Source of the DNA: Verrucomicrobiota bacterium
GTDB taxonomy: Bacteria > Verrucomicrobiota > Verrucomicrobiia > Limisphaerales > JANNEF01
Assembly (NCBI GenBank): GCA_031378375.1
Contig: JANNEF010000288.1
Coordinates: forward strand, 24,186-88,185
Direction: 5' to 3'
Length of the DNA stretch: 64,000 bases
Positions 2,370 through 61,966 of the stretch are shown piece after piece. The position numbers and the translations under genes were made by a program. Numbering within the stretch: the stretch's first letter is position 1; each line of letters begins with the position of its first letter. The notes beneath the pieces were generated by a model. It was not told the origin of the DNA. It ran no database searches and was given only the letters and a program-made list of their open reading frames with translations.

Positions 2370-2981
2370 ATGATGAACAATCCCCAATCCACCGCTTTGG
2401 AGAATGGCGAATGGCTGACCGCGCCAGGGCGGGAGGTGAACATGGTTCCGACCTTGTCCGCCACCGGCCTGGCAGATGCGGAGTCCACGCTGGGCAACGC
2501 GATCACTTTCACGCAGGCGCAAGACGAGCTGTTGCAAAAGTTTCAATCGGCGCTGGAACGAGTGCAGGCATTGGCCGCGTCCAGCCCGAACGTCATTGGA
2601 AGCAATCACACCGCCGCTCCCGGCGAAGTGCAAACCTTGGTCAACTACCTGCGCAACCTCACCGCCGTCGAGTTGGGCGGGCGCCCTTTGTTCGACGGCG
2701 CCACGTTGGCCGTTGAAGCGGACGGCACCGGCAATAAACTAATCATGGCCGGTGTCAATCTGCGGACGGGCAGCCTGGCTCCATGGAACCTGGCTGCTGC
2801 GATGCCACCTCTGGACACGACGCAAAGCCGGGTTCGGGCCCAAACGGCGCTTCAACGACTCGCCGTGGAACGATCCATTGTCGCCGCCAACCTTTCTCGG
2901 CTGAACTTTTTGAATCAACAACTCGACACCGTAAAGGATGGTCTGGTGGAAAGTGCCGGACGCGGTGCCCACCTCAAATAG
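2370..2981 (+). CDS. Hypothetical protein with flagellin/FlgL-like central helices (short, lacks the terminal D0 segments)
   Basis: ORF 2280..2981; I prefer the ATG pair at 2370/2373 (MMNNPQ...). LLQKFQSALERVQALAASSPN...EVQTLVNYLRNLTAVELGGRPLFDG resembles the flagellin N-terminal D1 helices. AQTALQRLAVERSIVAANLSRLNFLNQQLDTVKD resembles the flagellin C-terminal D1 helix. It lies directly upstream of flgM on the same strand. Confidence 0.5.
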   Translation: MMNNPQSTALENGEWLTAPGREVNMVPTLSATGLADAESTLGNAITFTQAQDELLQKFQSALERVQALAASSPNVIGSNHTAAPGEVQTLVNYLRNLTAVELGGRPLFDGATLAVEADGTGNKLIMAGVNLRTGSLAPWNLAAAMPPLDTTQSRVRAQTALQRLAVERSIVAANLSRLNFLNQQLDTVKDGLVESAGRGAHLK

Positions 2982-3826: not shown

Positions 3827-4240
3827 GACAAAAAAGTAATTTTCCGGCCAGACATTCTCTTGCTCAGGAACCTTAAACCCGGCGCATCGAATCCCACAAC
3901 GAGTTTTTCCATCGCCTCACGCGCAACTGATTCTGGTGCGGAGGCCTTGTTCCCGGCACAGAACGGGAGAGATTGACCAGGCTCGATCCGACACCGCCCA
4001 ATTGATGACAGAACCGACATGGAGCAGGCTCCCGGCACAATGACCGACAAGCCACACCTTGCATTGCAAGCGCATGTGCGTTATTTGTCTCTTGTTCCTC
4101 CTGGATATCTGGTGCGTTCCCTTCGCTCCGCGCGAATGGAGCAGTTTTGATTTCGATTCGCCGGATCAATGACTGCCATGGAACTTCGACGGATGGCGCC
4201 CCGGTTTTCTGAAACCGTTCATGTCAGTGAGTTGTCTTGA

Positions 4241-7200: not shown

Positions 7201-10102
7201 ATTCGACAACAACGGCTTCGACATCACCGCCAACAACGACGCCGATCTGACGCGGAACACCATCCTGCTTGGCGGCCTGCCCACGCAGGTGCCCGCGCCA
7301 TACCGGTTCAAGTTCCGCAAGCGCAGCGTGGGCGTCGGCAATTCGGCGAACGACTACTCGACGCTCTTCCAGCTCATTGACGCCGTCAGCCCGGCGGACA
7401 ACCCAACCAACGCGGTGATGGACCTCGCCGCGCTGAGCACGGTGGTGGATTGGGAGGCGTGGATGCGGCACTTCGCCATCCAGCGCACCGTCGGCAACTG
7501 GGACAGCTACGGCTGGCAGCGCGGCAAGAACGACTATTTGTACCGCACGACCAACGGGTTCGTCCACATGCCGTGGGACATTGACTACAGCCTGGGTCTG
7601 GGCCGGCCGGCCAACGAGCCGCTCTTTGACACGAACGACCCGCGCGTGCGCGCGATGTTCAACACGCCGGCCATCGTGCGGGCTTACTGGCGCGCCTTCT
7701 CGGACGTGGTGAGCGGGCCGCTCAACAACACGATTCTTGATCCGTTCATTGACTCGCGCGTGGGCGCGCTCACGGCCAACGCCGTCAACGTGGATCTCGA
7801 CGCCGTTGCCAACATCAAAGCTTTCATCGCCGACCGGCGGGTGTTCTTGCAGGAACAACTGGCGACCGTAAATGCGCCCTTCGCTGTGGAGGGGCCGGCC
7901 AGTTTCAGCGTCACCGAGAACCTCATCGAACTCACCGGCACCGCGCCCGTGGAGGTGAAGGACATCACCATCAATGGTGTCGCATATCCGATCACGTGGA
8001 CGAGCGCGACGAATTTCACCTTCCGTTTCGTGCTGCACCCGGGCGTCAACACCATCACGCTCCAAGGCGTGGACCGCTTCGGCATCGCAATCGGCGCCGC
8101 GAACTATGTGGTGACCGCAGACTACATCGGCCCAGTAGTGGCCCCGGCGGGAGCGCTCATCCTCAGCGAAATCATGTATGCACCGACGGCTTCCGGAGGG
8201 CAGTTCGTCGAGATCGTAAACCGCTCGGCGGCGAGCTTCGACTTGTGGGGCTGGCGTCTCGACGGCTTGAACCTCACGTTCCCGCCCGGCTCCATCGTCA
8301 CCAACGGCCAGACCATCGTGCTCGCGCAGAACCGCACGGCGTTTCGCGCCGCATACGGAGCAACGCCGGTGTTCGCCACTTTTGGCGCGACGCTGTCGTC
8401 TCAAGGGCAGGTGCTCGCGCTCGTCATTCCCGGGGCCTTCGGCGGCGATGCGCTGGTGGACGGCGTGCGGTACGAGTCAACGGCACCGTGGGCGCGCGGC
8501 GTGACCGGTGCTTCGCTGCAATTGATGGACGCGACACAGGACAACAGCCGGTCGAGCAACTGGGCGATGGACGCCACCACGCTGGCAACGCCGGGCGCAT
8601 CGAACTCGGTTGCCCGCGCCGTGACGCCTTACGATCCCCTGTGGTTGAACGAAGTGCAGATCGAGAGTCTCAACGGTCCGTTGGATAACTTGAGCGAACC
8701 GGAACCCTGGCTGGAACTCTACAACTCCGGCGCGGTGCCCATGAGCCTCGATGGCTATTATCTGGCGAACAATTACGTCAGCAACCTGACCAGCGAGCCG
8801 TTTCCGCCCGGCACGATGATCGCTCCCGGCGGACACCTGCTCGTGTGGGCTGACGGCGAGTCGGGCGAAACCGACGGCACCAACATTCACACCAGTTTCC
8901 GCCTGGATAGCAGCGGTCAACTCGCGCTCGTGCGCATCGTCGGCGGCCAGTCGCAGATCAGCGATCACCTCACCTGGACATCGCTGTTGGTGAACTTGAG
9001 TTATGGCAGTTCCCCCGACGGCCAGGCTGTTTACCGCTTCCCTCTGCACCGGCCCAGTCCCGGCGCCACCAATGTCGAACCGCCCTTGCGTGTGTTCATC
9101 AACGAATGGATGACCCGGAACAACACCGGCATCCGCGACCTGGCCGACAACGATCAGGACGACTGGTTTGAAATCTTCAACGCCGAATCGCGCACCGTGG
9201 ACCTGGCGGGCTATTACGTTTCGGACGATGCGGGCTTCCCAAATAAGTCCCGCATCCCCACCAACGGGCAATACCGCATTCCTCCCGGCGGCTACCTCCT
9301 GGTGTGGGCGGACAACGAAACCAATCAAAACACCGGCACCCGCGTCGATCTGCACGCGAAATTCCAACTGGGAAGCAGCGCGGGCTTCATCGGTCTCTAT
9401 GCTCCGGATGGCAGCAACGCGGTGGATTTTGTGAACTACGGCCAGCAATCCGACAACATCAGCGAGGGCCGGTTCTCCGACGGCGGGGCGGCGCTGCACC
9501 TCATGACCAACTCCACGCCGCGCACGGCGAATCGGATTTTTGGCTACAACAACCAGCCCAGATTTCCGTTCATTGCGCAACAATTCGTCCTCCCCGGCGA
9601 GACGCGCACCATCACCGTCCGCGCCTCCGATCCGGAAGCGCAGGCAGTGCCCCCACAACAGTCTTTGACACATTCGATTGTCTCGGCACCAACCGGCTCG
9701 CTGATCAACCCGAGCGGTATCTACCGTTGGGTCGTGCCGGCCGCGCAGCCGGTCGGCGATTATCCAGTCACGCTCCGGGTCGTTGACAATGGCACACCAC
9801 CGCGGAGCGACGTCACAACCTTTCTCATGACCGTCACCACCAATGACGTGCCGGTCGTCGTGCCGCCCTCAACCGGGCCGGTCATCTATACGATTTCCCG
9901 CGGCGAAGCAGAGTCCACGCTCGCATTCGACACGACTCCCGGACGCACCTACCGCGTCCTCTACAACGACGATCTCAACACGACGGGGTGGCTGCCGCTC
10001 CATCGTGATTTCGTCGCCGCCAATGTCACCGCGAGCATCACGGACTTCGTGACCACGCCACCGCGCTACCAACGGTTCTACCGCGCGTTGCGGTTGGATT
10101 AG
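4241..10102 (+). CDS. Giant secreted protein A: six lamin-tail-domain (LTD) repeats, a CBM-like module, a CotH kinase-like domain, an Ig/cadherin-like module and a C-terminal beta-sandwich
   Basis: 1953-aa ORF with signal peptide (FLFLLSLFAAFGVQAQ). Six LTD signatures: LVITEIMYNP..FVELLN; VYINEWQ..WIELYN; IVINEIMFNP..YVEIYN; LILSEIMYAP..FVEIVN; LWLNEVQ..WLELYN; VFINEWM..WFEIFN. CBM-like NLVVNGGFESGLTDWALQG. CotH-like core ending WDSYGWQRGKNDYLYRTTNGFVHMPWDIDYSLG. C-terminal TYRVLYNDDLNTTGWLPL...QRFYRALRLD. Confidence 0.9.
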   Translation: MPMKDCSVWETASRLGTQFLFLLSLFAAFGVQAQFSLDREPPGPSSRKTGLVITEIMYNPRPVPGLSTNFTYEFVELLNTKPWTEDISGFAIAGSVHYAFPPGTVLGAGAYLVVARVPGLIQTNYAITNVVGPWDGATTNRLPTDRGIVRLLNRQGAVLLEVNYADSPPWPEAADGTGHSLSLARPSFGEDNDRAWSESDSVGGSPGGPDPLTPDPMATVYINEWQNHSDPLDWIELYNHSNSDVDLSGAWLSDDPTTNKFRIPNGTMIPARGFRSWDQNQLGFELFAGGETILLWNSNQTRVIDVIDFRGASNNVAQGRWPDGGPNIYGMSVNTRGGPNAPPVRYPIVINEIMFNPISGSIEDEYVEIYNRGSQPVNLEAWEFIIGITYVFPTNGMTTLPPGGYFVVARNPSNLFSIYPNLNTNNTFGPYSGTLANGGERLALAAPDYDRVTGTNGQQVDEKLQVPASDLVYGDGGKWGNWSDGLGSSLELIDPDGDVHFPSNWADSNDTGESLWTDIEWNGPVGETLGSPVNDRLIIMLQGIGECLVDEVEVRVNNGPNLVVNGGFESGLTDWALQGSHDFSTIENEGFAGSKSIHVRAGSRGDNQSNRILSAPLTTPVPVNAQNVSLRAKVRWLRGFPELLLRLHGSATEAYGRMSLPRKLGTPGVVNSRRVSNAGPAIHHVKHSPILPAANQAVVVTAQADDRQVPLALTLRYRVDPTPGYLNLTMTDNGSGADEIANDGIYSAAIPGQATGNLVAFYVEGRDNLNAIGAFPQDVFPPPGLTRCWPNDAVARECVVRWGEPQMPGDFATYHLWVTSANSNRWHTRDTQNNTSMDATFVYNQTRVMYNALPLYSGSPWHRTNATTGPAGPNRVDFEMNFPDDDALLGSTDFVLNNPGNPDILTISDLSAVAEQTVYKIFEGLGLVHNHRRYIHMFVNGSQRSTAHERPGNFIFEDSQQPNGDMSAQWFPNDAGGQLFKVEDWFEFDNNGFDITANNDADLTRNTILLGGLPTQVPAPYRFKFRKRSVGVGNSANDYSTLFQLIDAVSPADNPTNAVMDLAALSTVVDWEAWMRHFAIQRTVGNWDSYGWQRGKNDYLYRTTNGFVHMPWDIDYSLGLGRPANEPLFDTNDPRVRAMFNTPAIVRAYWRAFSDVVSGPLNNTILDPFIDSRVGALTANAVNVDLDAVANIKAFIADRRVFLQEQLATVNAPFAVEGPASFSVTENLIELTGTAPVEVKDITINGVAYPITWTSATNFTFRFVLHPGVNTITLQGVDRFGIAIGAANYVVTADYIGPVVAPAGALILSEIMYAPTASGGQFVEIVNRSAASFDLWGWRLDGLNLTFPPGSIVTNGQTIVLAQNRTAFRAAYGATPVFATFGATLSSQGQVLALVIPGAFGGDALVDGVRYESTAPWARGVTGASLQLMDATQDNSRSSNWAMDATTLATPGASNSVARAVTPYDPLWLNEVQIESLNGPLDNLSEPEPWLELYNSGAVPMSLDGYYLANNYVSNLTSEPFPPGTMIAPGGHLLVWADGESGETDGTNIHTSFRLDSSGQLALVRIVGGQSQISDHLTWTSLLVNLSYGSSPDGQAVYRFPLHRPSPGATNVEPPLRVFINEWMTRNNTGIRDLADNDQDDWFEIFNAESRTVDLAGYYVSDDAGFPNKSRIPTNGQYRIPPGGYLLVWADNETNQNTGTRVDLHAKFQLGSSAGFIGLYAPDGSNAVDFVNYGQQSDNISEGRFSDGGAALHLMTNSTPRTANRIFGYNNQPRFPFIAQQFVLPGETRTITVRASDPEAQAVPPQQSLTHSIVSAPTGSLINPSGIYRWVVPAAQPVGDYPVTLRVVDNGTPPRSDVTTFLMTVTTNDVPVVVPPSTGPVIYTISRGEAESTLAFDTTPGRTYRVLYNDDLNTTGWLPLHRDFVAANVTASITDFVTTPPRYQRFYRALRLD

Positions 10103-10125: not shown

Positions 10126-10330
10126 GCTGCTCTAAAGTCCGAAGGCCGAAATCCGAATTCCGAAAGAAATCCGAAACCCGAACTCCGGGACGCGTTCCGT
10201 GACCGCTTGAGTTTCCATCCGCCGGCGGGGGGGGGCTTTTCGGATTTCGGTCTTCGGCCTTCTTTCGGATTTCGGGTTTCGGGTTTCGGATTTTATCCTC
10301 CGCGCAGAGTCACGCGGACTTTAGCGCAGC
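10126..10330. repeat. About 205-bp imperfect palindrome (REP-like) built from short TCCGAAA / TTTCGGA units, just downstream of LTD-CotH A
   Basis: Left arm gctgctctaaagtccgaaggccgaaatccgaattccgaaagaaatccgaaacccgaa. Right arm ttcggatttcggtcttcggccttctttcggatttcgggtttcgggtttcgga...cggactttagcgcagc. The outer ends (gctgc-ctaaagtccg / cggactttag-gcagc) are reverse complements. G-run centre. Confidence 0.8.
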
Positions 10331-27009: not shown

Positions 27010-30000
27010 TCACGGCACCTTGGTGCCAGTGTTCGTCCTGACAATGGACAGCCGACTTTCTTGCAGAAGCCTCCCGCCTTCGTCCACACCCCGCACGACG
27101 AAGACATTCGTGCCGGGCGACACGGGCACGTCCGCAAATTTCCACGTTTGAACATCCTTCCACTCCGGTTTCGCCTTGGGCTGTGGCGCCAGTTCCAGTG
27201 TGTAAATGGTGCAGGGTGCCATGCCCGTCAGCGTGACCGTGTGGTTGGTGACCGTGTTCGCCGTGTTCACGGGATTGATTTTGAACACGGCTTTGTAGCT
27301 CGCGCCCAGTTCACGCAGCACGGCGGCTTCGCGGTTGTTGCACCAGTTCAGGTAAACGGACGGGTTGGGCGAATACGAATTGCTCGCGTCTTCGTCCGCT
27401 TGTAACCACGCCTGGAAGCGCGCGGAGTTCTTTGTGTAACGCTCGTGCAACTCGGCGAGATAGTAGTTGAACAAGCGCCGGATGTGCGGCCGTTCCAGCC
27501 AGCCTTGCACGCGCCCGCCGTAGAAGCCGGAGTTGGCATCGCCCAGCGCGAGGTCGCTGTCCCATTGAAGGAACTGGAACTTCCCGTCCGTCGCGCGCTG
27601 GAAGAAGAACGCGTTCTTCCCCCGCCCCATCGTGAAGGTGTCCCAGTCGGCGATGTAGCCGCGCACCACCGTGTATTTCAGCACGGCGTCCACGTCGAGG
27701 AGTTGATCCACGTCGGTGAACTTGCCGGCGGAGATCGTTTTGAAGAATGCGATGAGGTCGGTGAAGTCGTCTTCGGTCTCGTTGCTGCGCTTCATCCATT
27801 CGGTGCGGTAGCGGCCCGGATTATCGCTGCCCTTGTAGCCGAAGTCGGCGTCGCGCTGATCGCGGTCCCAGTTGTCGGTAAACCACCACTCGTCATCAAT
27901 GCGATAAAGCTGGCCCTTGCTGCCGTAGGCGAAATTCCGGTTGAGCAGATCGTTGTGGACCGGCTCGGTGTCTTCGCGCAGGTCAATGCCGAAGTTGTTG
28001 ACGACGACGCGGATGATTTCATTTTCGCCGACGGGATGGCCGAGGAGGTAAAGCCAGTAGCGGGTGACACGGTTGTGGAAGTTGCCGCCTGCCGGATCGT
28101 TGTCGTAGTAAAAATGCTCGTGCGAGCGGAAGCGGCGGTCGTTAGGCAGCTTGAACTTGGGCCGGTCCAATCCGCCGCCGCGCGTCCACGGGCTGCCGCT
28201 GTTGCGGATTTCGCCACCGTAGTAAATCTCCTCCTCGTTCGTGATGAACGTGCTGTTGAAGTAATGGTTCGAGTGGCGCGGGTACTTGAACCCGTGCCGG
28301 GGCGTGTTGCCATCGGCGATGGCGTTGAGGTCGCGCGCGGAAACGATGAACCGCGTCGTCCGCAAGTCGAGCGGCACGGCGCGGTCGTCCACCACGTACA
28401 GCGCGGGCCGCACCGCGCCGCCGCGGGGCAGCAGGCAGGACTGGCCGTTCGTCGCCGTGGCTTGGACGAAGAACTGGATGACCTGTCCGCTGTTCCGGCG
28501 CGGAAGCTCGCCCGTGAAAATGGCGTCGCCCGCCATCGCGTCGCCTGCCAACCCGTCATCGCGCATGGCTGTGTTGGTCCAGACGCCGTCGGCCTTGTCG
28601 TTGTCCAACCGGTGAAAGACCTGCACCGACGTCAGCGGTGCGATGGAGAAAACCTTCGCGGTGACGGCCACGGTATTGGTCGAGCGCGGCACGGCCGGGC
28701 TGTGCGACAGGCTGCCCACTTGGGGCGGAGGCACGGCGATGAAGCGTGAATTCACCGCGCCCGGCGAGCCGAGGTTCTGTGGCACCTGGACGAGGAACGA
28801 GCCGGCGATGCTGTGTTCCCACGTCTGCGCGATCAGGCGCGGTTTGCCGGACACCCAGAGCGCGTTGAACTTCAATTCGCATGTCTCGCCCTTGGTCATC
28901 CCCGTCACGTCAATTTCCACGCGGTTGGCCCGACTGTCGCCGTGCCCGTCGGAAACGATGTGCAACTGGCCGTTGGTGATGAAACTTTGCGCATGATTGC
29001 CCTGGGCCAGCCAGCCTTTGACGCTCGCGCCGTCTTCTGACATCCGCCCCCCGTTGAGGACGTAATTCTTGTCCGAACCTTTTTTGCCGAACCAGATGTT
29101 CTCCAACACGACATGTCCGTCGCCCACGAGATGAAAGTGCAGTTCCTTGAAATCCGAGGGCGCGCCTTTGACGTGCAGTTCCTCGTACTTGCCCTCGCAG
29201 GAATACGCGTGCGGTGACGCTTTGCCGCGCTCGTCGCTGTCACGCCAGGCCGAGGCGCGCGAGTTATCCATCCCTGGATTGATTAGCTCCATGCTGCTGC
29301 CCAGGCCGGCGGCCAACTCCGGCCAGTCGCCGCCGGAGTGGTATTCCACCTGGTTGACCAGATTGCCCGCGCGGTCCACGAGCCGAATCAATTCACCGCC
29401 ATGACTGAGCTTGCCTTTGAAATTCCCCACCAGCGGCAGGTTGCCGCAGGCCGCGCGCAGGCGATTGGTATCCGCCGCGATGACGAGGTAGCTGCCGGCC
29501 GCAAGCTTCACGCCGTTCGGAAACTTGAACTGCACGGCTTCCTCGAACTGCCAGCCGGAGAGGTCCACCGGCTTCTTCCCGCGATTGAACAGCTCGATGA
29601 ACTGACTGGCATTCGTCAGCGCGGATGGTGGGTCGAACATAATTTCGTTGATCACGATGTCCGTATTGTGCGGCGGGTTGTTGGTCTCATTGCGACTGGG
29701 CTTGCTCGCCGAAAACCATTCACCGCCACCGTCGGGAAACGCCTGCCAGCACTCGCCAGACACGGGCGGGGTGAAGACCCGGCCATCCAGCACCACGCCC
29801 GCCGCGTTCACCACGTAGAGCGTGACCTCTCTGTCTCGGACTGGAAACGAAACGTTCCAACTGGCGCAACCTCCGGCCGCCAACGGCGCGTTCAACGGCT
29901 CCTTGTCCGAAAAATCCCGCCGCGATGACAGGAACAACCCCTGCGTCGTGCCGCCGGTTCTCAGCGGATTGAACAACTCAACCCAATCCACCTTGTCCTT

Positions 30001-31542
30001 TTTGAAATGAACTTCATTCAAGCGCGCGGCCTCGCCGGAAAGCCCCACATTCGGCAAGCCCCGGCTTGGTTCCGGGAAGCGAAACCACGACCTGCCGCCG
30101 GCCGGCTTGCGGCCAAGCGCGCGGGGGTCGCTGGAGAAATTCACCATCACGGCATTCTCCACCGTGGCACCGTCCGGGTTGACCAGGAAGACCGCCGCTG
30201 GATTGGTCACAGCAAACGCGGCATCGCCGAAACCAATCGCGCCCAGTCCGCCGGGCGGCAGCAACACGTCCCCCCGGATGGGAAACTTGCGCAAGTGGCC
30301 GGCGTCATCAGTCAGGAACCAGCCACGCAGGTTCGCCATGTTTGTGGTCGCGTTGAAGAACTCCACAAAGCCGGAATTTACCGGGTCGGGAAAGATTTCG
30401 TTGATGACTATGCCCGCCTGAAATGGCGTGGACACGCGCAGTCTCGCGCCGAACACCAAGTCCAAACTGGTCGCGCTGGACTGATGCACTTCCACGGCGA
30501 GCACATTGGTCCCTGGCAGGAACAGCGCGCCGCTGATGGGGAACACGCTCAATTCCTCCGTGGCGTCCGGGACGCTGGTGAGTGCGGGCGTGTTGTAGTT
30601 GAACACGCCTCCGGTCGCCATGCGCGAGCGGCCGATTTCCTTTCCATTGAGGTAATACACCGCGCCGTCGTCCACGATTTGATCCAATGCGAAGCGGGCA
30701 TTCTTCAAGTCCCCGTTGAAAACAAAGCGAGTGCGGAAGTAGCAGGTCATTTGCCCGCGCCGTGACAACGGTGTCTGGATGCCCGGCGTCGGCAGGGGCG
30801 CATCCTCGAAGCCCAGCAGCCCGCGTCCGCTCGCCCATTTGCTGTCATCAAAAGTTGTTTCGCGCCACGACGCGCCAAGTTCCCTTCCGCTGGCTTCGTA
30901 GCGCCACGACGACCCGTAATCCACCAGCGGGATACCGAGGTTCAAATCCACTTCAGGACTGGCGGCGGGTGTTTCTCTGGCCGGTAACGACACGGTGCCG
31001 GGGGTGCCGCCGGGCAGTTCGCTCGCCGTCCAGTTACGCCAGTCGTCCACGGAGCGGTTGGAATCGCGCAACACCAGCGAGTGTCCCGCGCCGTCTGCCG
31101 CCACGGGCCAATGGCCGCGCGTCCCAAACTTGACCGTGCAGGCTGTCACGCCGTTCTTGTCCTTGAGCGTGATGCGCTCGCCGCTGTTGCTCAGTTTGCC
31201 GGTCCACGGTCCGTAAACGCGGACGGATTCCGGCATCCGGTAGGCGGCCCGCAGCGCCGCCGCGTTTGCGCCACAAAGCACGATGCGTTCGAAGGGTTTG
31301 AGAAATGTAAGCCCCGGCGCGTTTGTGGAAAAATCCGGAAATTCATAACTCACCCCGCCAGCCAGCCGCCAACGGGCGATGTCGAGCGGCGTGACCGTCT
31401 GGTTGTAAAGCTCGACGAACTCCGGCCTGGTCGCTGGCGGATGATACATGATCTCGCTGATCACCACCTGTTCAGCGCGCACGGTCGCAACTGAAAGCAG
31501 GCACCATAACCAACCCAAATATCCAGCGCAGCGAAGCGTCAT
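27010..31542 (-). CDS. Giant secreted protein B: four LTD repeats, galactose-binding-like and CBM-like modules, CotH kinase-like domain (paralog of protein A)
   Basis: Start chosen at MTLRCAGYLGWLWCLLSVATVRAEQ (signal peptide) inside ORF 27010..31722. LTD signatures VVISEIMYHPP..FVELYN; IVINEIFPDP..FVEFFN; ARLNEVHF..WVELFN; IVINEIMFDPP..FIELFN. CotH-like core ...DWDTFTMGRGKNAFFFQRATDGKFQFLQWDSDLALG. Confidence 0.9.
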   Translation of the reverse strand: MTLRCAGYLGWLWCLLSVATVRAEQVVISEIMYHPPATRPEFVELYNQTVTPLDIARWRLAGGVSYEFPDFSTNAPGLTFLKPFERIVLCGANAAALRAAYRMPESVRVYGPWTGKLSNSGERITLKDKNGVTACTVKFGTRGHWPVAADGAGHSLVLRDSNRSVDDWRNWTASELPGGTPGTVSLPARETPAASPEVDLNLGIPLVDYGSSWRYEASGRELGASWRETTFDDSKWASGRGLLGFEDAPLPTPGIQTPLSRRGQMTCYFRTRFVFNGDLKNARFALDQIVDDGAVYYLNGKEIGRSRMATGGVFNYNTPALTSVPDATEELSVFPISGALFLPGTNVLAVEVHQSSATSLDLVFGARLRVSTPFQAGIVINEIFPDPVNSGFVEFFNATTNMANLRGWFLTDDAGHLRKFPIRGDVLLPPGGLGAIGFGDAAFAVTNPAAVFLVNPDGATVENAVMVNFSSDPRALGRKPAGGRSWFRFPEPSRGLPNVGLSGEAARLNEVHFKKDKVDWVELFNPLRTGGTTQGLFLSSRRDFSDKEPLNAPLAAGGCASWNVSFPVRDREVTLYVVNAAGVVLDGRVFTPPVSGECWQAFPDGGGEWFSASKPSRNETNNPPHNTDIVINEIMFDPPSALTNASQFIELFNRGKKPVDLSGWQFEEAVQFKFPNGVKLAAGSYLVIAADTNRLRAACGNLPLVGNFKGKLSHGGELIRLVDRAGNLVNQVEYHSGGDWPELAAGLGSSMELINPGMDNSRASAWRDSDERGKASPHAYSCEGKYEELHVKGAPSDFKELHFHLVGDGHVVLENIWFGKKGSDKNYVLNGGRMSEDGASVKGWLAQGNHAQSFITNGQLHIVSDGHGDSRANRVEIDVTGMTKGETCELKFNALWVSGKPRLIAQTWEHSIAGSFLVQVPQNLGSPGAVNSRFIAVPPPQVGSLSHSPAVPRSTNTVAVTAKVFSIAPLTSVQVFHRLDNDKADGVWTNTAMRDDGLAGDAMAGDAIFTGELPRRNSGQVIQFFVQATATNGQSCLLPRGGAVRPALYVVDDRAVPLDLRTTRFIVSARDLNAIADGNTPRHGFKYPRHSNHYFNSTFITNEEEIYYGGEIRNSGSPWTRGGGLDRPKFKLPNDRRFRSHEHFYYDNDPAGGNFHNRVTRYWLYLLGHPVGENEIIRVVVNNFGIDLREDTEPVHNDLLNRNFAYGSKGQLYRIDDEWWFTDNWDRDQRDADFGYKGSDNPGRYRTEWMKRSNETEDDFTDLIAFFKTISAGKFTDVDQLLDVDAVLKYTVVRGYIADWDTFTMGRGKNAFFFQRATDGKFQFLQWDSDLALGDANSGFYGGRVQGWLERPHIRRLFNYYLAELHERYTKNSARFQAWLQADEDASNSYSPNPSVYLNWCNNREAAVLRELGASYKAVFKINPVNTANTVTNHTVTLTGMAPCTIYTLELAPQPKAKPEWKDVQTWKFADVPVSPGTNVFVVRGVDEGGRLLQESRLSIVRTNTGTKVP

Positions 31543-31850
31543 TGCGCCGAAGGTAAAGCGTCGGTTGAATTGGAAAAGGCGAAACTCCCGTGACGGCCGC
31601 CGGATATTTGCGGGCGGTGACCGTTCCAGCACCGAAAGCGCAGAAAACTTATTGCGCCATTGCGGATAGAGCGGACTTCGTTCTGGTTCTGCGCACAGCT
31701 CATCGCCTCGCACGACCCACAACCAGCCGGGTGGGATCGATCACGGTGGATCGGGAGCGGTTCGGTGCGGTATGCTCCGGTGGTCGGGCGAACTTTGCGC
31801 GGTGTTTGACTCGACCATTGATGGCGCTTGCTTCTACCTTTCACCCAGCC

Positions 31851-33140
31851 ATGCAATCGCCAGTCCATGCAATCTCACCGGATATTTCCCGTCGCACGTT
31901 TCTGAAAGCCTCCGCCGTGCTCGCTGGAAGCACGCCGCTTCTGGCGGCAGTGGTCAAGGCGCAGTCAGCCGGAAGGAAAGCACCGCTCATCGCCTACGTG
32001 GGCACCTTCAGTTCTCCGCTCCACAACGTGCTGCCGACTCAGGTGGATCTGCCGCCGGGCAATGGCCGGGGCATCCACCTGTATCAAGTGGATCGCACCA
32101 CCGGGGCCATGACGCCGAGCGGTGTGTATGAACTGGGCACCAGCCCGAACTGCCTCGCTTTGAATGCCGCCGGCACGCGCCTTTATTCTTCCAACGAGAC
32201 GGACCGCGTAGGCGAACGCAACGAAGGCACGGTCAGCGCCTTTGCGATTAACCGGGCCGACGGGCAGTTGACCCTGCTCAACAGCGTCCGTTCCGGCGGG
32301 GCGGGTCCCACCTACGTGAGCATTCATCCGTCGGGGAAGTTCGTGCTGGTGGCCAATTATTTTGGCGGCTCCGTGGCGGTGCTGCCGATTCTGCCGGACG
32401 GTCACCTGGGGGCTGCTACCGACACCAAACAGGATCAGGGAACGGTGGGACCGCAGAAGGCGACCCATGCTCCGCCGGGAAGTTTCGCCTTCAGCGGACA
32501 CGACCGGACCCACGCGCACATGATTCAAGCGGATGCCTCGGGGCGCTTTGTACTGCACGTCGATTTGGGATTGGATCAGATTTTCATCTGGAAGTTTGAT
32601 GAGCACACGGGAGTTTTGACCGCGAATGACCCGCCCACCGTCGCGCTGCCACCGGGGGATGGGCCACGGCATTTCTCCTTCCATCCCAACGGACGCTGGT
32701 GCTACTCCCTCCAGGAGGAAGGCTCCAACATCGTCCTGTTCGACTACGATTCTGCGAAAGGCCGGCTCGTCTCGCGGCAGACTATCTCCAGCCTGCCGCC
32801 CGGATTCGCCGGTAGTAATTTCTGCTCCGAAATCCTAGTTTCTGACGATGGCCGGTTCGTCTATGCCGGCAACCGTTTGCATGACAGCATTGGCATTTTC
32901 TCGGTTGGCAAGACCGGGGAGTTGACCTTCCTCGGTGAGGAATGGACCCGAGGAAACTATCCACGCAGCTTCAATTTCGATCCCACCGGCCAGTTCCTGT
33001 ATTCCTGCAACCAGCGGGGCGACAACATCGCGGTGTTCCGCGTGGATCGCAGAACAGGCAAGCTCGCTTTCACCGGGCACTATACCCCGGTCGGGAATCC
33101 ATCGAGCATCGTTTTTCTCGACCTGGCAAAGGCGAAGTAA
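31851..33140 (+). CDS. Lactonase, 7-bladed beta-propeller family (6-phosphogluconolactonase-like), TAT signal
   Basis: Start chosen inside ORF 31590..33140: MQSPVHAISPDISRRTFLKASAVLAGS (twin-arginine motif). Repeated GxGPRH/F-type blades (GAGPTYVSIHPSGKF, GDGPRHFSFHPNGRW, GNYPRSFNFDPTGQF). Confidence 0.85.
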   Translation: MQSPVHAISPDISRRTFLKASAVLAGSTPLLAAVVKAQSAGRKAPLIAYVGTFSSPLHNVLPTQVDLPPGNGRGIHLYQVDRTTGAMTPSGVYELGTSPNCLALNAAGTRLYSSNETDRVGERNEGTVSAFAINRADGQLTLLNSVRSGGAGPTYVSIHPSGKFVLVANYFGGSVAVLPILPDGHLGAATDTKQDQGTVGPQKATHAPPGSFAFSGHDRTHAHMIQADASGRFVLHVDLGLDQIFIWKFDEHTGVLTANDPPTVALPPGDGPRHFSFHPNGRWCYSLQEEGSNIVLFDYDSAKGRLVSRQTISSLPPGFAGSNFCSEILVSDDGRFVYAGNRLHDSIGIFSVGKTGELTFLGEEWTRGNYPRSFNFDPTGQFLYSCNQRGDNIAVFRVDRRTGKLAFTGHYTPVGNPSSIVFLDLAKAK

Positions 33141-50988: not shown

Positions 50989-53010
50989 TTACTCTTCTGT
51001 GCTGGTCAGCTTCGCCAGCACACTGAAGTCTTCCAGCGTCGTGGTGTCGCCTTTGATCTCCGTGCCGGCGGCGACCTGTTTGAGCAGGCGGCGCATGATT
51101 TTCCCGGAGCGCGTCTTGGGCAGCATCTCGGCGAAGCGGATGTCATCAGGCTTGGCCACGGGGCCGATTTCCTTGGCGACGTGGCGGCGCAGCGCTTCGC
51201 GCAATTCCGAACTCGCCTGGATGCCGGTCTTGAGCGTGACGAACGCCACGAGCGCCTGCCCCTTCAACTCATCCGGGCGGCCCACCACGGCGGCTTCGGC
51301 CACGTTCGGATTGCTTACCAGCGCGCTCTCCACTTCCGCCGTGCCGATGCGGTGACCGGCCACGTTCAGCACGTCGTCAATGCGGCCCACGATCCAGAAG
51401 TATCCGTCCTTGTCCTGGCGGCACCCGTCGCCGGTGAAGTAACTGCCGGGCACTTCGCTCCAGTAAACTTCCTTGTATCGCTGCGGGTCGCCCCAGATGC
51501 CGCGCAACATGCCCGGCCACGGCTTGCGGATGACCAGCTTGCCGCCGCAATTCTTCGGCACGGGTTTGCCATTGTCGTCCACGACTTCCGGCAGCACGCC
51601 AAAGAACGGCAGCGTGGCGGTGCCGGGTTTTGTCGGCGTCGCGCCGGGCAACGGCGTGATCATCATCGCGCCGGTCTCGGTCTGCCACCAGGTGTCCACG
51701 ATGGGACAGTGTTTGCCCCCGATAACTTCGTGATACCACATCCACGCCTCCGGATTGATTGGCTCGCCCACGGTGCCCAGCAGGCGCAGCGAGCGCAGGT
51801 CGTGCTTCTCCGGCCATTGCACGCCCCACTTCATGAACGCGCGAATCGCCGTCGGTGCGGTGTAAAGAATCGTCACGCCGTATTTCGCCACGATGCGCCA
51901 GAAGCGGTCCGGCTCCGGCCAGTTCGGCGCGCCCTCATACATCACGCTGGTGGCGCCGTTGACCAGCGGGCCATACACCACGTAGCTGTGGCCCGTGACC
52001 CAACCGACGTCGGCGGTACACCAGTAAACATCCGTGGGGCGCAAATCGAAGACGTGTTTCGTCGTCAGCGTCGCCATGAGCAGGTAACCGCCCGTGGTGT
52101 GGAGGATGCCCTTGGGTTTGCCGGTCGAACCGCTCGTGTAGAGGATGAAGAGCGGCGCTTCGCTGTCCATCTTCTCCGCCGGACAATCCGCCGTGACGTG
52201 TTGCAACTCGCGGTGCCACCACACGTCGCGTCCTGCGGTGATCTGAATCTCGTTACACGCGCGGCGCAGGACGACGACTTTCTCGATGGTCTTCGCCAGC
52301 AACTCCCCGCCGGCGTCCTTGATCACGAGCGCGTCGTCCACGTTCTTCTTCAACTGCACCACCGCGCCGCGGCGAAACCCGCCATCCGCCGTGATGACCA
52401 TCTTCGCCTGGCAATCGTGGATCCGATCCGCCACCGACTGCGCGCTGTAGCCGCCGAACACCACCGAATGCACCGCGCCGATGCGCGTGCAGGCGAGCAT
52501 CGCAATGGCCGCCTCCGGCACCATCGGCAGATAGATGATGACGCGGTCGCCGCGCTTGATGCCGTTTCGCTTGAGCACATTGGCGAAGCGGCAGACCTCG
52601 TGATGCAACTGCCGGTAAGTCAGCACGCGCTCCTCGCCCGTCTGGCCGTCACCCGCCGGCTCGCCCTCCCAGATCAACGCGGCCTGGTTGGCCGTGGCGG
52701 TGCCGAGATGCCGGTCCAGACAGTTGTAACTGACGTTGAGCTGGCCGCCGACGAACCACTTGGCGAACGGCGTCTTCCACTGCAAAACTTTCTTCCACGG
52801 CTTGAACCACACCAGTTCGTTCTTCGCCATGCGGCCCCAGAATTTTTCCGGCGACTGGATGGACTCGCGATAGAGCTTCCGATACTCGGCCATCGTCTTG
52901 ATGTGCGCGCCACGGGAAAACTCCTTCGACGGCGCGAAGACGCGATGCTCCTGCATCACGCTGGTGATGTTCACTGAGGCGGTGGCGGGCTGCTTTGTTT
53001 TCGTGCTCAT
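50989..53010 (-). CDS. acs: Acetyl-CoA synthetase
   Basis: 673 aa. [36 protein letters not shown]. Confidence 0.97.
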
Positions 53011-53039
53011 CGGATTAGATTAGCGGCGCATTGTAAGGA

Positions 53040-53400
53040 CGCGTGGAGGCGCGTCAAGGATCACGCGGACTTTCGGCGGGTCGTGCCGCGCGGAGCGTGG
53101 GGAGCGCGGGCCTCCGGCCCGCTTTGACCGTCCGCCAGCCGATGCGGGAAGCATACCCGGCGGTGCGCGGATGTTCCACGCCCAAAGCGGGCTGGAAGCC
53201 CGCGCTCCGTTTGGAGTGCGGAGACTGGTCTCCGCTTTTCCGGCGGCGCGGCGCAGAACGGGCGCGGGCCTCGTTGGGTGTACGGCGCGTCCTTCCAAAA
53301 GCACCGACGAGTCGGCGCACTCCGTACGCTCCGCGCGGTGCGGGCGCGGCAAATGCATTGACGCGTGATACCGCGCGGAGCATTGGGCGGGCGGAGTCGG
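53040..53400. repeat. Cluster of GC-rich REP-like hairpins upstream of acs
   Basis: For example gcgggc-tggaa-gcccgc (53187-53203) and gcggagac-tg-gtctccgc (53218-53235), plus repeated gctccgcgcggtgcg / ataccgcgcggagc. Shares the 12-mer cacgcggacttt with the palindrome at 10310-10321. Confidence 0.6.
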
Positions 53401-53435
53401 GTCTTCGCGGTTCCCGCCGTGCCGCACGCGGACGA

Positions 53436-53845
53436 TTCCATGTGGATCGGAGCCGCTTCCGCGTGGATCGGCGGCGGTTCCACGAGGATCGCCACCGCTT
53501 CCATGTGGATCGCGGACGGTTCCGTGTGGATCGGAGGCGTTTCCCCGGTGTAAATGGACACTTCCCCATGTTTTTGGACACTTCCCCGGTATTTGGGCGC
53601 GTTTCCCCTGCAAGTGCGGACCATTCCCCGGAGGAATCGGCGGGTTTTGTCGGGGAATCAGCGCTAGATCACGGGGAAATGCCCTTCGATCACGGGGAAT
53701 CACTGCCAAAACACGGGGAAGTGTCCACCGATCACGGGGAAGTGGACACTGGTGAGACAGTCGCGGCGAAAATACACGGGGAATCGGAAATTATACACGG
53801 GGAAACGGCGATCGCACGCGGGAAACCGGTGGCGACACACGGGCG
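53436..53845. repeat. Mirror-symmetric array of about 20 phased 21-bp repeats (TTCC[CC] core forward x10, GG[GG]AA core reverse x about 10)
   Basis: TTCC at 53436, 457, 478, 499, 520, 541, 562, 582, 603, 624. GGAA at 53633, 654, 675, 696, 717, 738, (759 degenerate), 780, 801, 821. Left units ttccNNgtggatcgg; right units gatcacggggaa, the reverse complement of ttccccgtgatc. Symmetry centre at ttccccggaggaa, about 53630. Confidence 0.85.
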
Positions 53846-54012: not shown

Positions 54013-55500
54013 ATGAAATATATTCTGGCCCTGGACCAGGGCACCACCAGTTCGCGCGCCATCATCTTTGATCACGCCGGCGCGATCCAAGCCGTCGCGC
54101 AAAAAGAATTCCCGCAACTCTTTCCCCAGCCCGGCTGGGTCGAACATCACCCCGCCGACATCTGGAACAGCCAGTGGCAGGTGGCCAGACAAGCACTCGC
54201 CCGCGCGCGGCTCACCGCCCGCGACCTCGCGGCCATCGGCATCACCAACCAGCGCGAGACCACGCTCGTGTGGGATCGCGACACCGGAAAGCCGCTCGGC
54301 AACGCCATCGTGTGGCAGGACCGCCGCACCGCCGCGATGTGCGACCGCCTGAAAGCGCGCGGCCTGGAACAGGTCATCCGCCGCAAGACCGGCCTCGTGC
54401 TCGACGCGTATTTCTCGGCGACAAAGCTCCAATGGATTCTTCAACACGTCAAAGGCGCGCGGGAAAAGGCCCGCACCGGCGCGCTTGCCTTCGGCACAGT
54501 GGACTCGTGGCTCGTCTGGAACCTCACCGGCGGCAAGCAGCACGTCACCGACGTGAGCAACGCCTCGCGTACCATGCTGTTCAACATTCGCACGGGCGAT
54601 TGGGACGATGAGTTGCTCGCGCTCTTCGACGTGCCGCGTTCGGTGCTGCCCGAGGTGCGTTCCTCCAGCGAGGTCTATGGCGAGACTTCACTGTTCGGCC
54701 AGCCGGTGCCGATTGCCGGCATCGCGGGCGACCAGCAGGCCGCGCTGTTTGGCCAGGTCTGCACGCGGCCCGGCATGGTCAAGAACACGTACGGCACCGG
54801 CTGTTTCATGCTCATGAACACCGGCGCGAAACCCATTGCGTCAAAGAATAATCTGCTCACCACGGTCGCGTGGCGCATCGGCGACCGCACGGAGTACGCG
54901 CTCGAAGGCAGCATCTTCATCGCGGGCGCGGTCGTGCAATGGCTGCGCGACGGACTGGGCATCATCAAGCATTCCCGCGACATCGAGACGCTCGCGGCGC
55001 GGGTGCCGGACACCGGCGGCGTGTATCTCGTGCCCGCGTTTGCCGGACTCGGAGCGCCGCATTGGGATCAATACGCGCGCGGCCTCCTCGCCGGAATCAC
55101 GCGCGGCACCACCGCCGCGCACATCGCCCGCGCCGCACTCGAAGGCATCGCCCTTCAGGTGATGGATGTGTTGCACGCGATGGAGGCCGACGCGGGCATC
55201 CGCCTGAAGGAATTGCGCGTGGACGGCGGCGCGTGCGCGAACAATCTGCTGATGCAATTCCAGTCCGACCTGCTGGACGTGCCGGTGGTGCGCCCGCAGG
55301 TGTCCGAGACGACGGCGCTGGGCGCGGCTTATCTCGCGGGACTCGCGGTGGGTTTTTGGAAGAACCGGTCCGAAATCGCCGCGCAATGGCGGGCCGACCG
55401 CCGCTTCACACCGGCGATGAAGCCGGCGATCCGGAAGACGATTTGCGCCGGGTGGGCGAAGGCGCTCGCGCGGGCCAAGTCGTGGGAACAGCCTGATTGA
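54013..55500 (+). CDS. glpK: Glycerol kinase
   Basis: Start chosen at [20 protein letters not shown] inside ORF 53752..55500. Canonical FGGY kinase motifs ([19 protein letters not shown]). Confidence 0.97.
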
Positions 55501-61525: not shown

Positions 61526-61966
61526 CTATTTCTTCTTGGCGGCGTCGAGCTTGGCGATCATGGCCGCGGGACCGCCGGGGTGATAGCCGGGGTTCTTCCA
61601 GACTTCCTTGCCATCGGCGTTCAGCGCGAGCAGCGTGGGGAAGCCGGTGACGCCGTGCTTTTCCTGTAGCGCGGCATTGGCCTTCTTCAAGGCAGCGCTC
61701 TGTTCCTTGCGACGGGGGAAATCCAGTTCCACGAGGATCAGGTTGTCCTTGGCGTAGTCGGCGAACTCCTTGGTGTCGAAAACTTCCTTCTTCAGCTTCA
61801 CACACCAGCCGCACCAGTCGGAACCAGTGAAGTCCACGAAGACGAGCTTCTTTTCCTTCTTGGCGAGGGCCTGCGCGGCGGGCAGGTCGGTGAGCCATTT
61901 GAGTTCTTCGGCACCCGCCTGGAAGGCGAGCAGGCCGGCGATGAGTGAGAGAACGGTCTTTTTCAT
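61526..61966 (-). CDS. Secreted thioredoxin-fold protein (CGWC active site)
   Basis: Signal peptide MKKTVLSLIAGLLAFQAGA. FTGSDWCGWCVKL redox motif; cis-Pro context GFPT. Confidence 0.85.
   Translation of the reverse strand: MKKTVLSLIAGLLAFQAGAEELKWLTDLPAAQALAKKEKKLVFVDFTGSDWCGWCVKLKKEVFDTKEFADYAKDNLILVELDFPRRKEQSAALKKANAALQEKHGVTGFPTLLALNADGKEVWKNPGYHPGGPAAMIAKLDAAKKK

Follow-up and report, generated by a model that had tools for sequence, protein, structure and literature searches.

A mirror-oriented array of about 20 phased 21-bp units between acs and glpK in an uncultured Verrucomicrobium

Direct repeats phased at two helical turns are a familiar mode of DNA recognition among bacterial regulators, which normally use them in pairs. 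LytTR regulators bind 9-bp direct repeats with 12 bp between them (PMC2766830), and AraC-type hybrid two-component regulators of sugar utilization bind direct repeats at a 21-bp pitch, in which sites of 12 bp are spaced by 9 bp or sites of 16 bp by 5 bp (PMC3878776). Tandem operators are also found at E. coli glpFK, where four GlpR operators lie adjacent to one another (PMC2753651). Regulators known to share the geometry of the array described here occupy two sites, rarely three or four, and not 20.

Here we analyse a non-coding block of an uncultured Verrucomicrobium, located at 53411-53845 of the window (the whole 64-kb stretch of DNA that was studied), in which about 20 copies of one short word lie in the spacer between acs and glpK. 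This is a divergent regulatory spacer in a housekeeping context (ATP synthase, cytochrome oxidase, acs, glpK), and its acs promoter is recognizable and conserved, the TTGACG box and a TAnnAT -10 element being present just upstream of acs in three relatives also.

Layout and conservation of the array

The array comprises 10-11 forward units, 8-9 reverse units and one degenerate slot, arranged as two facing arms about a mirror plane near 53630 (Table 1). The ten forward TTCC starts listed in the earlier note (53436, 457, 478, 499, 520, 541, 562, 582, 603 and 624) and its reverse GGAA starts (53633, 654, 675, 696, 717, 738, 780, 801 and 821) were all recovered, as was the degenerate slot at 53759, across which the phase is kept. 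An outlying left unit at 53411, TTCCCGCCGTG, adds to that list and is the mirror of the outermost right unit, TTCCCGCGTG. Within the left arm, each of the five outer units contains GATC, and the inner block has one 20-bp step and repeatedly carries GGACAC just 5′ of the core. On the minus strand, four units of the inner right block read TTCCCCGTG followed by ATC or a T-tract, and the innermost reads TTCCCCGAC. Further out, two units read TTCCCCGTGTAT, and the outermost (TTCCCGCGTG, GGAA end 53824) follows a 20-bp step.

Table 1. Positions in the window of the parts of the array and of the flanking genes.
Feature	Position	Strand	Description
Outlying outermost left unit TTCCCGCCGTG	53411..53435	+	25-bp step to next unit; read from sequence
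Outer-left block, five forward units	53436..53540	+	Exactly 21 bp each; TTCC-RY-G(T/A)GGATCG + G+C-rich spacer
Inner-left block, four forward units (53541, 53562, 53582, 53603)	53541..53623	+	TTCCCC(G/A/T) then A/T-rich patch
Central junction TTCCCCGGAGGAA	53624..53636	.	Innermost forward and reverse cores overlap head-to-head, TTCC-N5-GGAA
Right block, inner part, five reverse units	53637..53741	-	GGAA ends 53657, 678, 699, 720, 741
Degenerate slot	53742..53762	.	Core absent; 42-bp gap, 21-bp phase continues
Right block, outer part, three reverse units	53763..53824	-	GGAA ends 53783, 53804, 53824
acs, acetyl-CoA synthetase	50989..53010	-	Pfam: ACAS_N, AMP-binding, AMP-binding_C
acs promoter-like site	53030..53057	-	TTGACG-16-TACAAT; shared box in relatives
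glpK, glycerol kinase	54013..55500	+	Pfam: FGGY_N, FGGY_C

An autocorrelation of 53436-53845 bore out the 21-bp period claimed previously, with identities of 0.57, 0.52 and 0.47 at lags of 21, 42 and 63, compared with a highest value at any lag of 0.36 in 1000 shuffles. Each arm taken singly gave a lag-21 identity of 0.57-0.59, TRF reported periods of 21 and 42, and no other stretch of the 64-kb window reached a lag-21 identity of at least 0.45. Since a pitch of 21 bp is two helical turns, the sites fall on one face of the helix. The phase runs on through the degenerate slot, and it holds although the unit types differ by 1 bp in motif length, which argues that the spacing is under constraint.

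Conservation within the unit is uneven. TTCC is invariant in 18 of 18 units, and no other part is. The 9-bp core (TTCCCCGTG or TTCCRYGTG) has a pairwise identity between units of 0.75, and the remainder of the unit (the spacer) one of 0.35, against a background of 0.27. Conservation falls to 61-83% at unit positions 5-9; an A/T-rich stretch covers positions 8-13, and positions 14-21 vary and are rich in G+C. Under a null model of uniform decay, at least four invariant columns arose in 0 of 5000 simulations, indicating that this position-specific conservation is not producible by uniform decay of a tandem repeat. These data support the conclusion that the units are conserved as a protein recognition site would be, and unlike a repeat in decay.

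The right arm holds six of the seven exact copies of TTCCCCGTG in the window. That both arms carry the same word, as had been stated, is nearly but not strictly true: the outer-left units read GTGGATC and the right units GTGATC, one base apart, with the pitch still 21. The claim that many units contain GATC agrees with a count of 10 between 53445 and 53855, where about two would be expected (from 4.1 per kb), an approximately five-fold enrichment.

The block had been described as a long imperfect palindrome. The orientation of the motif is indeed mirrored, but the arms are not palindromic, since their best complementarity is 53% (centre 53641) and near-equal values are obtained at centres shifted by 10.5 bp. 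The only palindromic part of the array is the single central junction, the individual units being asymmetric. The symmetry is thus a mirror of site orientation, and cruciform extrusion, which the earlier note had offered as one possibility, is implausible for arms of about 53% complementarity in which several registers score alike. An assembly artefact (foldback chimera) was also considered and ruled out, because the arms are far from identical.

Several observations indicate that the array does not encode protein. Its GC3 is 0.62-0.64, compared with 0.84-0.86 in acs and glpK, no Pfam match was found in it, and its translations are junk-like. GC3 and the lack of a Pfam match speak against a protein-coding heptad repeat, and the block is non-coding; the mirrored orientation of the units is moreover incompatible with a single reading frame. 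A small regulator gene hidden in the spacer was ruled out as well, as every ORF there resembles high-G+C junk, and a tblastn search of the spacer for a glpF pseudogene returned none.

Within the window the units are not dispersed, and its other 63.5 kb contain no copy of the block or of its arms. At 33036 (lactonase-like gene) and 61726 (thioredoxin-like gene) there are exact 14-mers in common with array units; both lie inside coding genes and were rejected as stray units, codon usage being the best explanation for them. Nothing related to the array was found in plasmid and phage records or in viral contigs, and a literature search on the core words returned primers and CRISPR repeats only. 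Scans of a genome collection for four TTCCNNG cores at 21 bp, and of metagenomes for three TTCCNNGTG cores, yielded no homologous array among the matches listed (at least 120 in each case); both patterns were permissive, and the listed matches were generic 7-bp plus 21-bp tandem repeats, many of them coding. A single instance of the array is known. Other Verrucomicrobia (L058, L052 and L076) and a metagenome contig (L162) contain loosely similar phased 21-bp arrays built on different cores.

The nearest available relatives, with 82-86% identity in GlpK or Acs, have neither the synteny nor, upstream of glpK and acs, the array. Five glpK loci in relatives (82-84% identity) showed no 21-bp periodicity and no TTCCCCG clusters, and the acs upstream regions of the nearest Acs relatives (85-86%) likewise showed no 21-bp periodicity. 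The nearest GlpK relatives (82-85%) carry glpF-glpK beside other genes, compared with no glpF at this locus, and the nearest Acs relatives have other neighbours too. The glpFK promoters of the relatives contain quite different 11-bp repeats and lie next to OmpR-type regulator genes. With the array missing in these relatives, there is no evolutionary conservation to support a regulatory reading.

A putative cooperative operator upstream of glpK

The right edge of the array lies approximately 170 bp from the glpK start codon, and the array extends from approximately 380 to 820 bp upstream of the acs promoter-like site. No sigma-70 (weak included) or sigma-54 consensus promoter was found in the glpK upstream region, so that glpK may depend on an activator. 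The earlier note had remarked that no regulator gene is adjacent, and in fact none is recognizable anywhere in the 64-kb window.

We give a probability of roughly 0.4 to the reading that the block is a putative docking array, on which a regulator with an asymmetric site would bind cooperatively along one face of the helix and act mainly on glpK. The array would be selectively maintained as some 20 copies of one asymmetric, putative protein-recognition site of about 13 bp in all, in which TTCC is followed by CC or RY, by GTG and finally by an A/T-rich patch. Two blocks of such candidate sites point toward each other and meet in the overlapping head-to-head pair TTCCCCGGAGGAA. A sequence-specific regulator would place one subunit on each unit, and its subunits would touch their neighbours head-to-tail within the arms and head-to-head at the centre. 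The outcome would be a two-fold symmetric nucleoprotein assembly of about 400 bp in the upstream region of glpK, far upstream of the acs promoter, which looks constitutive. The array would then work as one very large cooperative operator, as an upstream activating array or as a sink that takes up the regulator, and as such would make expression of glpK, possibly also of acs, track the regulator's active concentration steeply. From the pattern of cooperative binding proposed in the earlier note, the same-face spacing and the position-specific conservation stand; the binder, and binding itself, we infer.

Judging from geometry, AraC-type and LytTR-type DNA-binding domains would be the most likely kinds of binder, as both work with 9-12 conserved bp and a 9-12-bp spacer in direct repeats at 21 bp. 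AraC/XylS operators resemble the array in being asymmetric direct repeats (sites of about 12-17 bp) at a 21-bp pitch, upstream of carbon-catabolic genes and often in divergent spacers, and they activate promoters without a good -35 box. The array has the corresponding asymmetric units, with 9-13 conserved bp and an exact 21-bp pitch. However, AraC/XylS operators have two sites (a few have four), the proximal one overlapping or adjoining the -35 box, whereas the array has about 20, and its distance to the glpK start codon is about 170 bp and to the acs promoter about 380 bp at the closest. No AraC/XylS case with a mirrored 10+10 layout has been described, the motif is unlike any described within the core-word literature search, and there is no AraC-type gene in the 64-kb window.

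LytTR sites (AgrA/AlgR/LytR family) consist of a 9-bp imperfect direct repeat with a 12-bp, often A/T-rich spacer, and the array fits this closely, with its 9-bp core and a 12-bp spacer that starts with an A/T-rich patch. A LytTR dimer occupies a pair of repeats near the promoter, with the genes of the cognate regulator and kinase adjacent, whereas the array presents about 20 in two opposed blocks, 170-600 bp from glpK. The 64-kb window contains no LytTR or histidine-kinase gene.

Tandem GlpR operators are similar to the array in that several sites of about 20 bp lie adjacent to one another with glpK as the target gene, and an oligomeric repressor binds them with cooperativity. Each GlpR operator is itself a palindrome, whereas the units of the array are asymmetric and five times more numerous. 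The GlpR/DeoR-type operators suggested earlier are thus disfavoured, both by units that are not palindromic and by the different 11-bp repeats in the glpFK promoters of relatives.

A more far-reaching reading, which we regard as doubtful, is that the locus represents a new chromosomal nucleoprotein device, in which the two convergent arms, with their roughly 20 same-face sites, would seed a long two-fold symmetric filament or a wrapped complex. The binder would be a lineage-specific DNA-binding protein, and the device might form an ultrasensitive switch, or else titrate a regulator of carbon metabolism. The L058, L052, L076 and L162 arrays would then be sister devices of diverged specificity.

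Alternative origins and functions

We consider it unlikely that the array is a relic, or a non-autonomous derivative, of a mobile element of the foldback/MITE type. On that view each arm would be a transposon end packed with subterminal repeats that bind transposase, and whatever lay between the ends would be gone. The arms are mirror-oriented and directly abut, and the array is lineage-specific, being missing in relatives whose gene order differs, so that the spacer may mark the junction of a rearrangement. The block lies between two direct copies of a 7-mer, CGGGCGG (53388 and 53840); this is the sole flanking repeat, and for G+C-rich flanks it is within chance (about 0.3 expected). Moreover, the 53% complementarity of the arms leaves no defined terminal inverted repeat of the kind that marks REP or MITE termini, there is no second copy of the block or arms within 64 kb, and no transposase gene was found in the window. 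An IS630-family element directly adjoins L162, another 21-bp array of TTCC type, but that element is bounded by terminal repeats of its own, outside which the L162 array lies, and its transposase was consequently dropped as support for a transposon-end reading.

The number of repeats in each arm is also unusual for such an element. The bacterial elements Tn7, Mu, Tn402 and IS21 have 2-4 binding sites per end, and we know of no bacterial transposon with about ten; a remnant of this kind, if that is what the array is, would be without bacterial precedent. The ends of eukaryotic foldback and CACTA transposons do consist of inverted arms of tandem short subrepeats that bind the element's protein. 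These elements are, however, eukaryotic and multi-copy, with defined termini and target-site duplications, and the array shows none of these traits.

Neutral slippage combined with an inverted duplication, which would make the array a decaying minisatellite without function, appears improbable. It would explain the 42-bp super-period of both arms (77-81% matches, TRF), which suggests past duplication of unit pairs, and the similarity of neighbouring left-unit spacers (0.48), which exceeds background. The lack of the array in relatives is consistent with it as well, as is the large number of 21-bp tandem repeats of unrelated kinds that public genomes and metagenomes contain. It does not readily account for four invariant and nine conserved columns beside near-random spacers, a combination met in 0 of 5000 uniform-decay simulations, nor for a phase that survives a dead unit and a one-base difference between unit types. 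In the right arm, furthermore, the spacers are at background similarity while the cores are perfect.

It is very unlikely that the array is a replication or segregation repeat, whether as the iterons of an integrated replicon, a partition centromere or a datA-like cluster of boxes titrating DnaA. Plasmid iterons are units of 17-22 bp at about 22 bp, and the pitch and unit size of the array match them. Five outer-left units contain TGTGGATCG, CGTGGATCG or CGAGGATCG, and the best of them agrees with the reverse-complemented DnaA box TTATCCACA at 7 of 9 positions, compared with about 4 of 9 in the other 15 or so units; the five-fold enrichment in GATC points the same way. The element common to all units is nevertheless TTCC..G and not the part resembling a DnaA box, outside which the invariant TTCC lies. 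Like the array, with its DnaA-box-like outer-left units, oriC has two opposed arrays of an asymmetric 9-bp site, which there give the growth of an oligomer its direction. Spacing in oriC is about 11 bp, with five sites per arm, compared with a pitch of 21 bp here, and oriC adjoins an unwinding element at a skew switch, neither of which is present at the array. The lowest G+C in any 40-bp window is 0.50, leaving no A/T-rich unwinding element, and there is no turn in GC skew or switch in gene orientation at 53.6 kb, cumulative skew falling on both sides of the array and genes to the right being mostly on the minus strand.

Iterons and type Ib/II partition centromeres also consist of many short phased repeats, with one protein per repeat, arranged in blocks and sometimes in both orientations, and they often double as operators. 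The parC of R1 has 2 x 5 repeats, and the heptad arrays bound by omega protein combine direct and inverted units. These elements adjoin a rep or par gene on plasmids, whereas the array is chromosomal and in a housekeeping context. The earlier suggestion of centromere-like iterons fails for the same reasons: no dnaA, dnaN, rep or par gene is present in the 64-kb window, there is no unwinding element, and the array has no similarity to plasmid or phage records.

Least probable of all is an RNA role, either as a long glpK leader or separate transcript forming an imperfect hairpin of about 400 nt or as a CsrB-type GGA sponge. The single-strand fold of the array is stronger than those of 100 of 100 shuffles (-100.4 versus -78.0 kcal/mol; z = -5.5), virtually all units show GGA on their plus strand (as GUGGAUC in the left arm and GGGGAA in the right), and no promoter is recognizable between the array and the glpK start codon, so that a transcript might start upstream of the array. 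However, the excess in folding is a trivial consequence of mirrored cores, and the predicted fold pairs TTCC with GGAA and buries GGA in stems, the opposite of the loops of CsrB-type RNAs. No promoter-like or terminator-like site brackets the block, as a CsrB/RsmZ sponge would require, and no Rfam family matched the array at gathering or permissive thresholds, scores being below one third of the gathering score apart from long-hairpin look-alikes. A strict 21-nt pitch, finally, is meaningful for duplex DNA and not for RNA.

Implications for regulation in Verrucomicrobia

If the block is the large cooperative operator that we favour, it would be ten times larger than the pairs of phased repeats that regulators normally use and would be built as two facing arms, making it an extreme natural case of cooperative or titrating transcription-factor binding. 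Such an array might be a built-in ultrasensitive switch, a sink for the factor, or a scaffold for a long protein filament. With 20 sites in 410 bp it is also a ready-made bait for its putative binder. The locus lies between two central carbon-entry genes, for acetate and for glycerol, in Verrucomicrobia, a phylum whose transcriptional regulation is almost unstudied.

Geometry and setting of the array

The 1002-bp spacer between acs and glpK carries about 20 asymmetric sites of ~13 bp, which lie on one helical face and form two convergent blocks in a regulatory position. All forward TTCC and reverse GGAA starts given in the earlier note were present, as was its coreless slot. An additional outlying forward unit, TTCCCGCCGTG, is the mirror counterpart of the outermost right unit, TTCCCGCGTG. 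Autocorrelation confirmed the proposed 21-bp period, with a base identity over 53436-53845 of 0.57 at lag 21, 0.52 at lag 42 and 0.47 at lag 63, whereas 1000 shuffles produced no identity above 0.36 at any lag. Each arm alone gave 0.57-0.59 at lag 21, and both were assigned periods of 21 and 42 by Tandem Repeats Finder. Across the whole 64-kb window a lag-21 identity of at least 0.45 was reached only at the array, and six of the window's seven exact TTCCCCGTG words sit in the right arm.

Coordinates of the array, its neighbours and the loci compared with it (window positions unless a locus is named)
Feature	Position	Strand	Remarks
acs, acetyl-CoA synthetase	50989-53010	-	Pfam ACAS_N, AMP-binding, AMP-binding_C
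acs sigma-70-type site	53057-53030	-	TTGACG-16-TACAAT; just upstream of acs
Outlying forward unit	53411	+	25-bp step
Forward-unit TTCC starts	53436, 457, 478, 499, 520, 541, 562, 582, 603, 624	+	
Reverse-unit GGAA starts	53633, 654, 675, 696, 717, 738, 780, 801, 821	-	
Degenerate slot	53759		core absent, phase unbroken across slot
glpK, glycerol kinase	54013-55500	+	Pfam FGGY_N, FGGY_C
Lamin-tail/CotH genes	4241-10102; 27010-31722	+; -	
6-phosphogluconolactonase-like beta-propeller gene	~31851-33140	+	TAT signal; contains 14-mer
Thioredoxin-like gene	61526-61966	-	contains 14-mer
acs promoter in relatives	L252 ~4950-4985; L253 ~3950-3985; L254 ~2945-2975		85-86% Acs identity
11-bp direct repeats in relatives	L122 2992-3159; L125 3043-3213; L126 1362-1693		upstream of glpF
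Geminisphaera colitermitum TAV2 array	L058 6440-6860		NZ_ABEA03000045.1; core CTCCGGGAA
Verrucomicrobiales MAG array	L052 3030-3240		CGTGGAAAGTKGACTT; between corA and dnaB 3' ends
Verrucomicrobiota MAG array	L076 4086-4340		TTCCGAGSGGTGT; upstream of GH5 cellulase gene
L051 array	L051 440-670		alternating 42-bp unit
Metagenome contig Ga0182021_10460100 array	L162 76-285		nine 21-bp units, core TTCCSGRTG

Forward units point right and reverse units left; in TTCCCCGGAGGAA (53624-53636) the innermost core of one block overlaps that of the other. The long imperfect palindrome described earlier therefore holds for site orientation but not for sequence, since the arms were at best 53% complementary (199 bp per arm, centre 53641) and 50-51% complementary with the centres displaced by 10.5 bp. 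At these values the suggested cruciform is not credible in duplex DNA, and an assembly foldback artefact is excluded.

The acs genes of three relatives share a TTGACG box with a TACAAT or TAAGAT -10 and a 16-17-bp spacer, so the acs core promoter is ancestral; this indicates an ordinary sigma-70-type acs promoter in this Verrucomicrobial lineage. The array is located 380-820 bp upstream of that promoter. Its right edge lies ~170 bp from the glpK start codon, and for glpK no sigma-70-like site above 8/12 matches and no sigma-54-like site was found. The 370 bp of the spacer nearest to acs (53060-53430) are very G+C-rich (0.68-0.80) and have repeats of their own: one inverted repeat whose 31-nt arms (53101-53131 / 53178-53208) are 87% complementary and enclose a loop of 46 nt, plus other pairs, both inverted and direct (I5, I6, D3, D4, D6). 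None of these has another copy in the window or matches an Rfam family.

Relatives and comparable arrays

The best GlpK and Acs matches, named for instance 'Verrucomicrobiota bacterium' or 'Pedosphaera sp.', were 84-86% identical; the only identical GlpK was a singleton. At the nearest glpK loci, glpF comes before glpK, with glpD or response-regulator genes alongside, and the nearest acs loci have different neighbours (nusA, DUF1501 genes, a peptidase). Conservation of the array in orthologous acs-glpK spacers, raised earlier, was not observed, as these loci have neither the juxtaposition nor any 21-bp periodicity; both juxtaposition and array thus appear specific to this lineage. One relative has a single, suggestive CACGGGGAA site ~205 bp upstream of acs. 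Instead of TTCC units, the relatives' glpF-glpK upstream regions contain direct repeats of 11 bp (for example GGTTACAATTC GGTGACAATC GGTGGCAATCC), which in L125 and L126 adjoin an OmpR-type response-regulator gene. Their glp operon looks to be under two-component control, unlike the window, which lacks glpF and has no glpF remnant in the spacer.

Two large motif scans with permissive patterns returned, among the matches listed, generic 7-bp and 21-bp tandem repeats; the pattern itself imposed TTCCNNG at 21 bp, so that the arrays retrieved serve as leads without demonstrating homology. The Geminisphaera array is ~400 bp long and degenerate, with at least 15 units at 21-bp pitch (CTCCGGGAA..CCGSAAAG), a lag-21 identity of 0.56 and two flanking ORFs without a Pfam match. 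After it comes a run of roughly 23 G (~6919-6941), possibly a phase-variable tract, which lies immediately upstream of an ORF with its start at 6909. The arrays of L052, L076 and L051 are likewise degenerate and phased at 21/42 bp, in non-coding DNA of Verrucomicrobial MAGs. On viral contig IMGVR_UViG_3300009603_001573 (L249 ~650-720), 4-5 TTCCCCGT(G/A) words in non-coding-looking DNA share the core word with the window array, but their pitch (~10-11 bp) and architecture differ.

The core of the metagenome array (L162) is close to the window's TTCCCCGGTG variant. This array is preceded by a terminator-like hairpin and cut at its right edge by a complete IS630-family element (276-1418; 34-nt terminal repeats 276-309 / 1385-1418; DDE transposase of 358-369 aa), and it lies outside that element's own terminal repeats. 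BLAST against plasmids and phages found nothing similar to the window array. Its descent from a mobile element is unlikely, and the 64-kb window encodes no transposase. Nor does it encode dnaA, rep, par or any recognisable DNA-binding regulator, which extends to the whole window the earlier remark that no regulator gene is adjacent. Besides two giant LTD/CotH proteins, it encodes ATP synthase, cytochrome oxidase and a MacAB-type efflux system, along with further housekeeping genes. At 33036-33049 and 61726-61739, inside coding genes, two 14-mers (TTCCGCGTGGATCG and GTTCCACGAGGATC) match array units exactly; they are probably a codon-driven coincidence (FRVDR motif), though slightly above chance expectation.

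The two giant proteins, 1953 and 1570 aa long and of secreted type, each combine multiple Lamin-tail domains with a CotH kinase domain. Short repeats, both tandem and inverted (GAAATCCGAAACCCGAAA x1.9 followed by TTTCGGATTTCGG x4), occupy 10148-10289, between the first of their genes and an aldo-keto reductase gene.

Position-specific constraint on the units

Eighteen units were aligned, each oriented along its TTCC strand. The TTCC itself never varies, conservation at positions 5-9 is 61-83% (CCGTG, or RYGTG in the five outer-left units), positions 8-13 are A/T-rich (0.56-0.89 at positions 10-13, as ATC, yielding GATC, or as T-/A-tracts), and positions 14-20 are variable and G+C-rich. Pairwise identity averaged 0.75 over positions 1-9 and 0.35 over positions 10-21, against 0.27 for random 12-mers from the window. 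A neutral minisatellite is improbable: when a common ancestor was made to decay uniformly, with the model tuned to match the overall identity of the units, four invariant columns arose in 0/5000 simulations. The sites are thus subject to position-specific constraint. The right-arm word GTGATC is a base shorter than its outer-left counterpart GTGGATC, and the pitch is 21 in both despite this difference and a dead unit; spacing therefore appears constrained and not merely inherited.

An iteron or DnaA-titration site is very unlikely. As a replication origin the array was rejected, having no A/T-rich unwinding element (minimum G+C 0.50 in any 40-bp window), no GC-skew turn and no dnaA, rep or par gene within the window; genes right of glpK are back on the minus strand. 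Least probable is an element acting as RNA: the single-strand fold does beat shuffles (z = -5.5), because TTCC pairs with GGAA, and Rfam gave no family at gathering thresholds and only long-hairpin look-alikes, far sub-threshold, at permissive ones. A coding array was also rejected, as open frames across it have a GC3 (third-codon-position G+C) of 0.62-0.64 versus 0.84-0.86 in acs and glpK, their Arg/Pro/Gly-rich junk translations have no Pfam match, and a mirrored repeat is unreadable in a single frame.

A putative site-recognising assembly

We favour, tentatively (probability about 0.4), an array bound by a site-recognising protein assembly that controls glpK and perhaps acs. One subunit would recognise one site and make lateral contacts every two helical turns, with the central overlapping core pair supplying the dyad axis of the complex; glpK, the nearest gene and one with no consensus promoter, would be the principal target. 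The GlpR operators of E. coli glpFK are palindromic, in contrast to the asymmetric sites here. Four of them are adjacent at that promoter (PMC2753651), against ~20 sites in the window. The geometry of the window array is shared by LytTR regulators, with 9-bp repeats and a 12-bp, often A/T-rich spacer (PMC2766830), and by the AraC-type domains of sugar-utilisation regulators, with 12-bp sites and a 9-bp spacer or 16-bp sites and a 5-bp spacer (PMC3878776), but these normally have two sites. In oriC, DnaA oligomers grow directionally along two arrays (PMC4285127) opposed like the arms described here, but at half the pitch.

As a kind of element, direct-repeat binding sites phased at two turns are already known, and the scale and 10+10 convergent architecture are, as far as could be established, without known precedent. 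The case is one instance in one uncultured genome and the binding protein is hypothetical; the array would be an excellent bait for finding it.
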